Source: a virus | Taxonomy: Duplodnaviria; Caudoviricetes | Reading direction: 5' to 3' (one strand) | IMG/VR virus record: IMGVR_UViG_3300033072_000957 | Coordinates: 17,567 to 81,566 of that record | DNA: 64,000 bases | Shown: positions 1 through 64,000 of the stretch, in pieces | Layout of the letters: every line of letters begins with the position of its first letter | How positions within the stretch are numbered: the stretch's first letter is position 1 | Translations under genes and position numbers: made by a program | The notes under the pieces: generated by a model | Database searches by the model: none | Seen by the model: only the letters and a program-made list of their open reading frames with translations | What the model was told of the DNA's origin: nothing

Positions 1-2
1 TC

Positions 3-2174
3 ATCCGCAATCTTACCAAATACCTCATCCATAACAACGATATTTGGTTTTGGCAATGAGGAGATTTTGGTTAATACACTTCGTAATGCTAATGATGATA
101 TTGTTCTTTCATATCCCGAACCCGCATTAAGTGGTTTAACCACTCTTGTTTCGGTGTCAATCATAATAAACTCAACTTCATTTTTATCATTAATACTTAA
201 TTCTAATATAAAATGGCAACTATCAACCAATAATCGATATAACTCTTGATTTAACAATGGAATCATATTTTTAAGAATTACTTTAGAAATACCATTCTTA
301 CCATAAATGGTTAAGTAAATTTTAAACACACCTAATAATTCTTCTTCACCTTTAATCTTAACAATTAAATCGTTGTTAACTGCAATTTTTTCTTTTAAAT
401 TAGTGATGTTATTATTTTGTCTTTCAATTGTTGTGTTAGATACTCTAATATCTGCATTAACCGTTTCAATTTGCGTTCTCACACCAATTAATTCTTGGTC
501 AATTCTTTGATTATCTTCTAATCTTTTCTTATTGTCATTGTATCTGTCTAATCTTAATTGTTTCGCATCAATTTCAAGTTGTTTTTGTTCAACCTCCAAT
601 TCATAACGAGCTTTACGAAGTTTATTTCTTTCGTATGTGTCAAATTCGGTTTTTAAAGTTTCAAACGCATCGGATTCTTTTTTTAAATTATCCAATTCTT
701 TATCGTTTGTTTCTCTATCTTTTAGAATTTCCTCAATTTCTTTTTTGGCTTCCTCAATTTCATCTGTGTGGTCCACCTCATCCAATGGTCTATTACATTT
801 TGGGCAGATTTTACCTTCTTCCAATAATCTGATATGTTTTTCTCTTTCAGATTTTTCTCTTTCACCCAAACGATTTTCAACATCCAATTGATTCATTTTT
901 TCTTTCAATTGTCTGTGTAAATCCTCATCATAATATTTCGATGGTTCCACCACCGCAACATTATTTGCATTGGTTTGGCTTAAATCTTTTTGTCGATTTA
1001 ATTCATCAATTTCTCCTTTAAGTAATGTTGGATTGGTATTAATCAATTCTCTATCAACATCATTATTTTTTGAAGAGAGTAACGTATCTCTTTTATCCTC
1101 AAGAGTTTTTAATGTTTTATCATAGTCTACCAATAATCCCTCATTACGTTTTATTTCATCTTCTGAATCAATAATTGACTGATTAAATCTTTCATTATCC
1201 GCTTCAAGTTGTACTATGTTATAAGTGTTGGAAATTAATTTCTTACTCCAATCATTATAAATTTCTTTAGCAATCTCTTCTTTTGCTTTAAGACTTTCTA
1301 AACCTAAAAATTTAGTAAGAATCTGACCTCTTGCAGTTGGTTTAGATTCAATTAATTCTTCTAAATTATAACCAGTTGTTAAGATGGTTGATAAAAAATC
1401 TTCTTCCGAACCTATTGCGGATGCAATAAAACTTTCCGTTTCTCTTCTTTGTTCACCACTTAAATTCACAATTGTACCATCGTCATTCTTTTTATAGAAT
1501 TCCAACTTATTAGTAACATTATATTCCCCAGACTTACTTTTCTTTCTATTGGTTTTTCTTTCAATGACGTAATCATCTCCGTCAATTGTAATATGACCCG
1601 TCACACTTACTTCATCTTTGTCAGTAAATCTATTGAAAACTTCTCCGTTTGTTTTTGTCTTTGTTGTTGAATTAAAGAATAAGAACATAAGTAAGTCTAC
1701 CGTAGATGTCGATTTACCACCAAAATTTTTAGGTGTTGATTCAACTACAGTAATGCCGTCCAAATCTGTAAAATCAATAATATTATTATCGCCAAATGAT
1801 AAAAAGTTGGAGAATTCAACTTTTTTAATGAACCACTTATTGTATCTAACTTTATTTTCATTTAACTTATCTATTTGTGTATTTACTTTATTATCCAATC
1901 TATCAACTAAATCCCATTTTATATTAATGTTGTTTTCTTTAATGAAATCTTTCATTAAAGTTTTTTGATATTGGTGGTCTAATATATTATCGGTTGCTTC
2001 CAAAGATTGCAATCTAGTCTCCTTAACATTAGATAATGTTTTGGTTATTACTTGGACGCTCTTACTTTTATATTTTTCTTGGAAGTATGACTTTACTCTA
2101 CGAATTTTTTCAGGCGTAAAATTTTCGGGAACATCTTCCCAAGTCACTTTAATAAATGGATTGTTGTAGCTCAT
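3..2174 (-). CDS. sbcC: Rad50/SbcC/T4 gp46-like ABC ATPase (3'-truncated by window edge; not in ORF track)
   Basis: Manual translation from ATG at 2174 (MSYNNPFIKVTW...): Walker A-like TPKNFGGKSTS, long coiled coil, ABC signature GSGYERT and Walker B IVVMDEVFG near base 1; partner gp47-like gene at 3963-4787. Confidence 0.9.
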   Translation of the reverse strand, partial: MSYNNPFIKVTWEDVPENFTPEKIRRVKSYFQEKYKSKSVQVITKTLSNVKETRLQSLEATDNILDHQYQKTLMKDFIKENNINIKWDLVDRLDNKVNTQIDKLNENKVRYNKWFIKKVEFSNFLSFGDNNIIDFTDLDGITVVESTPKNFGGKSTSTVDLLMFLFFNSTTKTKTNGEVFNRFTDKDEVSVTGHITIDGDDYVIERKTNRKKSKSGEYNVTNKLEFYKKNDDGTIVNLSGEQRRETESFIASAIGSEEDFLSTILTTGYNLEELIESKPTARGQILTKFLGLESLKAKEEIAKEIYNDWSKKLISNTYNIVQLEADNERFNQSIIDSEDEIKRNEGLLVDYDKTLKTLEDKRDTLLSSKNNDVDRELINTNPTLLKGEIDELNRQKDLSQTNANNVAVVEPSKYYDEDLHRQLKEKMNQLDVENRLGEREKSEREKHIRLLEEGKICPKCNRPLDEVDHTDEIEEAKKEIEEILKDRETNDKELDNLKKESDAFETLKTEFDTYERNKLRKARYELEVEQKQLEIDAKQLRLDRYNDNKKRLEDNQRIDQELIGVRTQIETVNADIRVSNTTIERQNNNITNLKEKIAVNNDLIVKIKGEEELLGVFKIYLTIYGKNGISKVILKNMIPLLNQELYRLLVDSCHFILELSINDKNEVEFIMIDTETRVVKPLNAGSGYERTISSLALRSVLTKISSLPKPNIVVMDEVFGKIAD

Positions 2175-62509: not shown

Positions 62510-62555
62510 ATAAATAGTTTAATCTTACGTTCTATTTATGTATATTTTATAATAT

Positions 62556-64000
62556 ATGGAAACAAAGATTCCCGAAATTGAGGCGAGAAATATATTATCT
62601 ACTTATGAAGGTTCTAATAATCAATTATTAGAGTGGAAGAGAAAATTTGTAGAAGTTAAGAATTTTAAATTAACAAGACCTCAAGCCGAGTACGTACAAA
62701 AATATCATCAAGTAACCCCTAAGGTTGCTAGAAAACATATTAAAATAGTTTCAACATTTGGTGAAAAAATTATGGAAGATAAACTTTTACCAAAACCTCC
62801 TGAACAAATATGGTGTGAAAAATTATTATGTGAATCTGATAAAGCTTATCATATTTGGGGTAAGGTTCTTGATTCTGAACAATTAAACCCTTTTTGGTTA
62901 CCCAAAGCTGCAATTATCCAAGAAGAGAAAAAATTGAATAGGGTTATCGATTATACCAAGTATAATACTCGTCCCCCTATGGAACACCAAAAAGTTGCAA
63001 TTGAAAAACTTTTAGCAAACGATAAATTTATTTTAGCTGATGATATGGGTTTAGGTAAAACAACATCAGCAGTTATTGCATCTTTAGAAAGTGGTGCTCG
63101 AAAAGTTTTAATTGTTTGTCCGGCATCATTAAAAATCAATTGGGAAAGAGAAATTAAAAATTATAGTGATAAAAAAATATTAATTGTTGAAGGACGTAAA
63201 TGGGGACATACATTTGATTTCTACATTATCAACTATGACATTATTAAAAATTATCACACAACCGATAAGAGTGAAGATAGTGATGATTATAAATTATTAG
63301 TTAATACTAATTTTGATTTAGCCATTGTCGATGAAGCACATTACATTTCAAATACAACGGCAAATAGAACAAGATTATTAAATGATGTTTTAGATACCAT
63401 ACCCAAAGTTTGGTTATTGACGGGTACACCTATGACATCAAGACCGATAAATTATTTTAATCTTCTTAAAATTGTCGAATCACCTTTAACATTAAATTGG
63501 CAATCATATGTTCGTAGATATTGTGCGGGATATCAATTTAGAGTTGGTAATCGTAAAGTATGGAACACGAGTGGTGCTTCTAATTTAGATGAACTTAGGG
63601 AAAGAACAAAGAATTTGGTTCTTCGTAGAATGAAAACAGACATTCTTGATTTACCTGAAAAAATTGTAACTCCCATTTTTGTGGAACTAAGTAGTAGAAT
63701 GTATGAAGAAGAAATGGATGATTTTACTCGCATCAGTAACGATAACAAAGACAAAGAAACTTTAAGTGTCACTTTAAATCGTTTAATGAAGGTTCGTCAA
63801 TTAATCTCATATGAAAAAATTCCTTATACTTGTGAAATTATTGATAGATGTTTAGAACAAGGTAAAAAAGTTATTGTATTAACTAACTTTACAATGACTC
63901 TCGATATGTTGCACGAAAAATACAAAAAGAATTCTGTAACATTGGATGGTCGTATGTCTAAAGATAAAAGACAAGATGCGGTAGATAGATTCCAAAATGA
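62556..64000 (+). CDS. SNF2/SMARCAL1-like SF2 helicase (3'-truncated by window edge; not in ORF track)
   Basis: ILADDMGLGKT, LIVCPASLKINW, IVDEAH, LLTGTP, LRRMK, LDGRMS..RQ.AVDRFQ. Confidence 0.92.
   Translation, partial: METKIPEIEARNILSTYEGSNNQLLEWKRKFVEVKNFKLTRPQAEYVQKYHQVTPKVARKHIKIVSTFGEKIMEDKLLPKPPEQIWCEKLLCESDKAYHIWGKVLDSEQLNPFWLPKAAIIQEEKKLNRVIDYTKYNTRPPMEHQKVAIEKLLANDKFILADDMGLGKTTSAVIASLESGARKVLIVCPASLKINWEREIKNYSDKKILIVEGRKWGHTFDFYIINYDIIKNYHTTDKSEDSDDYKLLVNTNFDLAIVDEAHYISNTTANRTRLLNDVLDTIPKVWLLTGTPMTSRPINYFNLLKIVESPLTLNWQSYVRRYCAGYQFRVGNRKVWNTSGASNLDELRERTKNLVLRRMKTDILDLPEKIVTPIFVELSSRMYEEEMDDFTRISNDNKDKETLSVTLNRLMKVRQLISYEKIPYTCEIIDRCLEQGKKVIVLTNFTMTLDMLHEKYKKNSVTLDGRMSKDKRQDAVDRFQN

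Follow-up and report, generated by a model that had tools for sequence, protein, structure and literature searches.

A CATG-free jumbo-phage contig encodes an NlaIII/IceA1-family nuclease without an adjacent methylase

The 64,000-nucleotide stretch analyzed here (the window) comprises bases 17567-81566 of an 81,566-bp viral contig (IMG/VR record IMGVR_UViG_3300033072_000957) and is entirely free of the tetranucleotide CATG, as is the remainder of the contig. At positions 2171..3160 on its minus strand, the window also encodes a 329-amino acid (aa) nuclease of the NlaIII/IceA1 family, the presumed target of which is CATG, and no methyltransferase gene lies beside it. The likely explanation is that the phage encodes an active CATG cutter of the NlaIII/IceA1 type that lacks a methylase, and that it owes its self-immunity to selection that has removed every CATG. 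Coordinates are given in window numbering unless prefixed; handles beginning with G denote longer records of the phage group (the contig itself is G000), those beginning with L denote locus stretches from related phages, and paired counts are observed/expected CATG unless another word is named.

A preliminary description of the window had claimed that CATG was fully purged and had roughly estimated ~180 sites from base composition, and computation bore out both statements. No CATG occurs on either strand of the window (1..64000, a feature without strand), against 246 ± 14 in dinucleotide-preserving shuffles (shuffle minimum well above 0), 174 under a second-order Markov model, and 184 from mononucleotide composition; the CATG-free DNA continues over the entire 81.6-kb contig, where 222 sites are expected. 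Synonymous-codon shuffling within 69 contig open reading frames (ORFs), the second null proposed in that description alongside the Markov model, predicted 106.8 ± 7.7 sites with a minimum of 84, under a null that inherits the already biased codon usage. Because ~107 sites are predicted in this way, the chance of zero CATG is on the order of e^-107 (~1e-47). Other 4-bp palindromes do occur in the window, as had also been reported: GTAC 140 times, TGCA 249, AGCT 62, CCGG 54, TCGA 89, and GATC 17.

Avoidance of CATG is present in all three codon phases. His codons preceding a G are CAC in 71 cases and CAT in none, in agreement with the earlier statement that every His checked before a G-starting codon was CAC, while other positions in the contig have 160 CAT and 75 CAC. 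Codons of the form NNC ahead of Met number 0/433, while 10% of codons elsewhere in the contig have C last, and NCA codons ahead of TG number 0/70, while NCA makes up 57% of NCN codons elsewhere in the contig. Every CATG is avoidable by synonymous spelling in all three frames, and the purge is therefore without amino-acid cost. This can be followed site by site in G005, a relative described below: at 44 sites with CATG in G005 and both amino acids conserved, G000 has a synonymous spelling, which differs by a single base in 39.

The nuclease gene had been attributed to an IceA-like enzyme family in the preliminary description, and its product indeed matches the Pfam family ICEA (PF05315) at 103.8 bits (cut-off 24; E = 1.3e-29), residues 125-323 aligning with profile positions 3-199 of 218. 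Within the His-Me finger superfamily, PF05315 constitutes the NlaIII/IceA1 family (PMC5714182), and iceA1 is 52% identical to NlaIII and adjoins the CATG methylase gene hpyIM (PMC2749054). Across 17 aligned homologs, the DHKNG...N..KR motif (D239, H240, K241, N242, G243, N269, K272, and R273) and the zinc-binding cysteines C276, C279, C310, and C313 are invariant. The Pfam-matched part (2192..2788, minus strand) appears to consist of a winged-helix-like region followed by an HNH/Zn-Cys nuclease core; in an AlphaFold (AF2) model with a mean pLDDT of 81, winged-helix domains are weakly similar to residues 100-199 (Z 5.0) and HNH nucleases, among them McrA and Cap5, to residues 207-325 (Z 4.8). 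A wide VIA structural search with the nuclease yielded HNH and winged-helix rows that were all weak (Z ≤ 5), the family profile retrieved no relevant sequence from the PDB, Foldseek against the PDB gave no match at E ≤ 0.001, and there was no match in PHROGs, PADLOC, or NCBIfam.

Residues 1-124 (2789..3160, minus strand) form an N-terminal extension specific to a long form of the protein in this jumbo-phage group, being present in 7 full-length homologs and absent from the 190-220-aa forms (alignment A2); its sole structural similarity, to the SeqA C-terminal DNA-binding domain, has a Z of 4.2, below noise level. This N-terminal domain accompanies the methylase-less long form in 8/9 lineages, with L004/L090 as the exception. 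Purifying selection on the nuclease gene is strong: its dN/dS is 0.06 at dS ~1.0 (L087 versus L089) and 0.03 at dS 0.18 (L087 versus L088), and it is constrained as much as the neighboring SbcC gene, for which L087 and L089 give 0.04 at dS ~1.7. The enzyme presumably cleaves CATG, which is the one word wholly missing from the contig and the absence of which goes with the gene and with the lack of a methylase.

The immediate neighbors of the nuclease gene are a 102-aa ORF and SbcC rather than a methyltransferase, and no PF01555 or PF00145 match was found in the contig, which represents ~26% of the genome by CheckV completeness. Within the contig, the gene does not belong to a complete Type II restriction-modification system, as no cognate methylase adjoins it. 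A Dam-family D12 adenine methylase does lie 15 kb from the nuclease, outside the window (L171:4364-5200, minus strand, identical to contig bases 4364-5200), and matches PF02086 (E = 2e-22) and, below cut-off, TIGR00571 (57.7 bits). It is 83-90% identical in G001, G003, G004, and G005, where the genome average is ~66%, and is found in relatives irrespective of whether they carry the nuclease or contain CATG; because it is a core gene shared by non-carriers and CATG-bearing relatives, it is not regarded as the partner of the nuclease. In the G004 lineage, a variable slot just upstream of the nuclease holds a UDP-glucose/GDP-mannose dehydrogenase gene (L087:8393-9634, plus strand); this 413-aa ORF had been a candidate C5 methylase by motif and was rejected once recognized as a UDP-glucose dehydrogenase.

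Among related phages, the presence of the nuclease, the presence of a methylase, and the frequency of CATG are associated. Wherever a long-form ICEA gene occupies the same slot with no methylase, CATG is absent (L001 0/39; L002, of 44% GC, 0/31; L003 0/17; L006 0/31; L087 0/59; L088 0/56; L089 0/54; L172 0/18; L173 0/16), and the whole 159.8-kb record behind L087, the methylase-less carrier G004, has a count of 0/512. The same holds for L096 (0/34), in which a short-form ICEA gene without a methylase is found in another phage type. Together, the tabulated methylase-less carriers have ~1,000 CATG expected and none observed. Carriers with a methylase retain CATG at observed/expected (O/E) ratios of ~0.03-0.9, comprising those with an adjacent PF01555 methylase (L004/L090 2/59, L174 11/28, L176 3/45, L097 13/43, L093 14/45, L095 10/48, L098 3/26, L100 6/42, L103 13/56, L110 13/73, L091 15/22, and L107 21/31) and one with flanking C5 methylases (L092 18/60). 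In the latter locus (L092:9089-11531), a C5 cytosine methylase gene lies on either side of the short-form ICEA gene (PF00145, E = 8e-34 and 6e-41), in place of the N6/N4 methylase that is usual. Of the two CATG in methylase-bearing L004, one (L004:16880-16895) arises at a start codon that immediately follows a TATTTATA motif.

Close relatives without ICEA within ±10 kb of SbcD, ~75 in all, have 15-48 CATG per 20-kb locus (O/E 0.4-0.8), and G005, a 323.9-kb record that is 97% complete, with an SbcD 91% identical and no ICEA gene anywhere, has 580/1136. The comparison of relatives with and without the nuclease, as proposed in the preliminary description, thus separates non-carriers that keep CATG from slot-resident methylase-less carriers that have none, and depletion equal to that of the window, which had been named as the sign of host restriction alone, was not found in these nuclease-free relatives. 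The earlier inference of selection against the site of the enzyme family encoded at 2171-3160 is supported by this comparison, subject to two caveats taken up below, namely the purged G001/L035 lineage and a two-fold depletion in non-carriers. CATG is patchy along the nuclease-free records G002 (L160-L161) and G003 (L155-L159), G002 having 2 in its first 11 kb and then 19 in 10 kb, as would be expected if purged and unpurged segments recombine.

Phylogenetic analysis of SbcD+SbcC placed the ICEA-positive lineages in scattered positions, corresponding to five or more origins or losses, and made L001 (0/39) the sister of the ICEA-free L074/L075 (14/51 and 4/26). In the nuclease tree, the genes resident in the slot group together in one clade, with methylase-positive L004 and L174 nested among methylase-less members; in another clade, methylase-less L096 (0/34) has methylase-bearing L093 (14/45) as its sister. 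A raw 2x2 table of 8/1 versus 3/64 gives p = 8e-8, a value that overstates independence. L087 and L089 have 3,014 differences in 18,608 aligned bases (dS ~1-1.7), and CATG occurs in neither. As ~1.6% of random substitutions create CATG, ~48 CATG-creating changes are expected among their fixed differences, and because none is present the purge appears to be actively maintained and not a relic. In population data, none of the 40 variant positions listed (of ~1,100) creates CATG, compared with ~0.5 expected.

In the proposed explanation, the nuclease would be a Type II enzyme cutting CATG unaccompanied by a cognate methylase, and any CATG in phage DNA would amount to a self-inflicted double-strand break in every infection. 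Selection would delete all CATG by synonymous change and leave the phage DNA immune to its own enzyme, and other DNA in the infected cell that contains CATG, from the host chromosome or from a co-infecting phage, would remain cuttable. An active methylase-less nuclease would account for exactly zero counts, relaxation beside a methylase, and hundreds of sites in gene-free relatives, and the nuclease presumably drives or maintains the purge. Its cuts could feed the gp46/47-type (SbcCD) exonuclease and so lead to host-DNA breakdown and nucleotide salvage, and a role in host-DNA demolition is suggested by the position of the gene inside the gp47-gp46 string together with a phage ribonucleotide reductase, the nrdA and nrdB genes of which would plausibly be linked to salvage of nucleotides from cut DNA. 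Given an active enzyme, the chance that host DNA is the target may be put at about even, and rival phages are a somewhat doubtful target, although exclusion of unpurged co-infecting relatives is as compatible with the data as host-DNA breakdown.

A broader proposal can be made tentatively, with slightly less than even confidence: this freshwater jumbo-phage group may use the gp47-gp46 slot as a cassette site for restriction nucleases, methylase-less lineages deleting the enzyme's word from 300 kb and then wielding the enzyme against host DNA and unpurged relatives. If so, purged lineages would be genetically isolated from unpurged ones. This reading would also suggest an evolutionary ratchet, from a restriction-modification pair through site depletion and methylase loss to an orphan nuclease, of which the methylase-bearing carriers at O/E 0.03-0.5 could be intermediates; the order may also have been the reverse.

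Several observations weigh against the proposal that the nuclease is responsible for the purge. Non-carriers are still ~two-fold depleted in CATG; L104/L105 and L113 have ICEA genes, no recognizable methylase, and many CATG; a methylase elsewhere in the genome is possible, since the contig covers only about a quarter of it; and an independent-pairs test gave 3 contrasts as predicted, 0 opposite, and 1 tie, too few for sign-test significance. GATC, a depletion absent from the preliminary description, is ~ten-fold depleted without known cause (17/182 observed/expected in the window, 21/236 in the contig), which indicates that host restriction also shapes these genomes; for G004, the carrier of 160 kb, the corresponding count is 0/473, and for G005 it is 43/965. 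Finally, G001 (a 55-kb record holding L035; L144-L146) is fully purged, with CATG at 0/141 and no ICEA gene in 55 kb, and an ICEA motif scan gave nothing in its 214-kb sister contig. Because G001 is as far from the window phage as G005 is (66% amino-acid identity genome-wide), recent nuclease loss is not the explanation; either the portion of the genome not seen encodes a nuclease, or a full purge can result from host restriction.

Other features of the G001 lineage include two lineage-specific genes, a GIY-YIG homing-endonuclease-like gene (L146:1926-2585, not in G005) and a 175-aa ORF, for which an ESM Atlas look-up returned only unnamed viral clusters. A 192-aa slot ORF of L035 was considered as a non-homologous CATG nuclease and rejected, its family being present at 30-85% identity in many unpurged relatives. 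A PvuII-family search in G001 gave no match, in a search whose controls were unmatched too.

The strongest alternative, though an unlikely one, is that NlaIII-type systems of the hosts drove the purge alone, the phage nuclease being a passenger tolerated only in genomes that were already site-free. It would accommodate the purge of G001/L035 without an identified nuclease, the ~two-fold CATG depletion of non-carriers, and the strong GATC depletion that most of the group shows with no nuclease to match, and restriction-site avoidance is widespread in phages (PMC6286503). Left unexplained would be the retention of the gene in the same slot at dN/dS 0.03-0.06 in at least five scattered lineages and exact zeros over up to 160 kb, whereas the group's other strong depletion, that of GATC, keeps residual sites in both the contig and G005. 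Moreover, an active methylase-less nuclease must enforce the purge whatever began it, and this alternative therefore mainly concerns the order of events.

It is very unlikely that the ICEA-like protein is instead a homing-type or structure-specific HNH nuclease of another specificity, acting for example with SbcCD in recombination or packaging, and that its association with CATG is coincidental. Phages commonly carry HNH nucleases with homing or packaging roles, the gene lies in a variable slot, and its distribution is sporadic as in homing genes; the ICEA genes of L104/L105 and L113, in CATG-rich DNA with no recognized methylase, would also fit. Yet the protein matches the specific Type II family of NlaIII and IceA1 rather than generic HNH nucleases, the purged word is exactly that family's site, a genome-wide purge of a 4-mer favors a short target, and the presence or absence of an adjacent methylase predicts CATG tolerance in three contrasts of the nuclease tree. 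An artifact of assembly, sequencing, or sampling, such as a library made with a CATG cutter or chance composition, has nothing in its favor and can be all but dismissed, given that the CATG-free state recurs in independent assemblies from ENA, JGI, Logan, and IMG/VR, that the stretch is found in the runs of several studies, that CATG occurs hundreds of times in related contigs obtained from data of the same kinds, and that chance alone is as remote as calculated above.

The closest known enzymes are NlaIII of Neisseria lactamica and IceA1/HpyI of Helicobacter pylori, which share with the window enzyme the family, the His-Me DH...N motif, the Cys clusters, and the presumed CATG target. Those enzymes are bacterial, of Type IIP, and paired with a CATG adenine methylase (M.NlaIII and hpyIM), whereas the window enzyme is phage-borne and has the extra 124-aa N-terminal domain, no adjacent methylase, and a CATG-free genome. 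PacI is a solitary HNH restriction endonuclease of Pseudomonas alcaligenes, the genome of which is without its 8-bp site (cited in PMC3488263). In both cases an HNH restriction enzyme has no methylase, and the absence of the site would serve as self-protection; here too the encoding genomes lack the recognition site over the portions available, with 0 CATG in 81.6 kb of the window phage and in 160 kb of G004, both partial genomes. The PacI site is AT-only and rare by composition in a GC-rich bacterium, whereas the word removed here, apparently by selection, is of 4 bp and expected hundreds to >1,000 times in a phage of 31% GC, and its removal has occurred repeatedly in several lineages.

Among viruses, R.CviAII and M.CviAII of chlorovirus PBCV-1 target CATG, and the host chromosome is degraded within minutes of infection, supplying nucleotides, host-DNA demolition and salvage being the role proposed for such enzymes (PMC7019647). 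The likeness is that the virus encodes a restriction enzyme directed at DNA that is not its own, which in the window phage is suggested by gene order with the gp47/gp46 homologs; the chlorovirus protects its own DNA by methylation, whereas the window phage would do so by site deletion, with a nuclease of a different family and in a prokaryotic host. Protection by a cognate methylase, as in the chlorovirus, was not seen in the window phage, which has no adjacent methylase and no CATG to methylate. In T4, endonucleases II and IV begin the breakdown of host DNA, which the gp46/47 exonuclease continues, and hydroxymethylcytosine marks the phage's own DNA. The window phage resembles T4 in an endonuclease together with a gp46/47-type exonuclease, a link that gene order suggests, in its T4-like replication module, and in a self/non-self distinction that would be built into the phage DNA; self is marked by a modified base in T4 and would be marked by an absent word in the window phage. 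Staphylococcus phage K is reported to lack GATC. Restriction-site avoidance in phages is well documented (Rusinov et al., 2018; PMC6286503) and proceeds by synonymous palindrome removal as here, but it is attributed to host enzymes, whereas the enzyme matching the purged word is encoded here by the phage, and the purge tracks the presence of the gene and the absence of a methylase. Solitary restriction genes have been catalogued in phages, 12 in 831 genomes (PMC4176335); no description of a phage with a methylase-less Type II enzyme and its own 4-bp site erased from a large genome was found in the open-access literature.

If confirmed, an absent word would be a third viral self-DNA mark besides methylation and modified bases, in which the weapon is carried and its target word deleted, and it would explain why short words are totally, not partially, absent from large phage genomes. 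It would also provide a function for solitary phage restriction genes and predict recombination barriers between otherwise close phage lineages. The nucleases are candidate new CATG enzymes, and word-free genomes are a possible signature for phage-borne nucleases of unassigned specificity. The natural series of no nuclease, nuclease with methylase, and nuclease alone makes the idea directly testable.

The state of GATC varies independently of that of CATG within the group, being 0 in L007, L008, L073, L083, and L085 and near expectation in L037-41, L044, L006, and L077-79, and 30/43 of the GATC sites of G005 are clustered in one island at 150-180 kb. The gp47-gp46 slot of G005 holds a 197-aa ORF (L008:4225-4818, plus strand; G005:C1:319105-319329 region) that matches the PADLOC 'Type II restriction enzyme' PDLC03414 (E = 6e-10); ORFs of this kind are present only in L007, L008, and L073, and all three loci have 0 GATC. 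The slot may be a general cassette site for restriction nucleases.

No close relative was found among GenBank phages by megablast of 20 kb or by tblastn of the nuclease, and the best primase match, at 35% identity, was to a Flavobacterium phage. In IMG/VR, at least 168 related contigs were recovered; because these reach 335 kb and have SbcD proteins 75-91% identical, the contig is considered a jumbo-phage fragment. The stretch is present in runs from 8 studies labeled freshwater, estuary, reservoir, or aquatic, and none of the runs listed as containing it is an RNA run. Nearly all genes are on the minus strand, and those of the window include a T4-like set for replication and recombination (primase, DnaB-like helicase, gp32-like, UvsX/RecA-like, 5'-3' exonuclease, SbcD/gp47-like, and SbcC/gp46-like genes) and myovirus tail genes (sheath and baseplate J). 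Profile matches upheld the gene identities given in the preliminary description for the gp47-like gene, the primase, nrdA, and nrdB, the last two forming a class I ribonucleotide reductase at 33307..36731 on the minus strand (nrdA 33307-35739, PF02867, E = 2e-198; nrdB 35754-36731, PF00268, E = 8e-113).

Around the nuclease, also on the minus strand, are the SbcC/Rad50/gp46-like gene (3..2174; phrog_77, E = 1e-43), which is cut by the window start and encodes 780 aa in the contig, the 102-aa ORF directly upstream (3160..3468), the position of which is conserved in relatives, the SbcD/Mre11/gp47-like phosphoesterase gene (3963..4787; PF00149, E = 2e-12; phrog_100, E = 2e-20), 70-91% identical in relatives, and an exonuclease-like gene in the same gene string (4781..5641; phrog_298, E = 1.5e-17). 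The nuclease start overlaps the stop of the 102-aa ORF (TAATG) and its stop overlaps the SbcC ATG (ATGA), an arrangement indicating that the gene is probably translationally coupled to both neighbors inside the gp47-gp46 (SbcD-SbcC) string. A promoter scan found 43 candidates, compared with 40 expected. Four of the 69 contig genes are without a homolog in G005: the nuclease, an 89-aa ORF, and two adjacent ORFs of 198 and 228 aa, which have no Pfam or PADLOC match and lie together at 14955-16241 on the minus strand.

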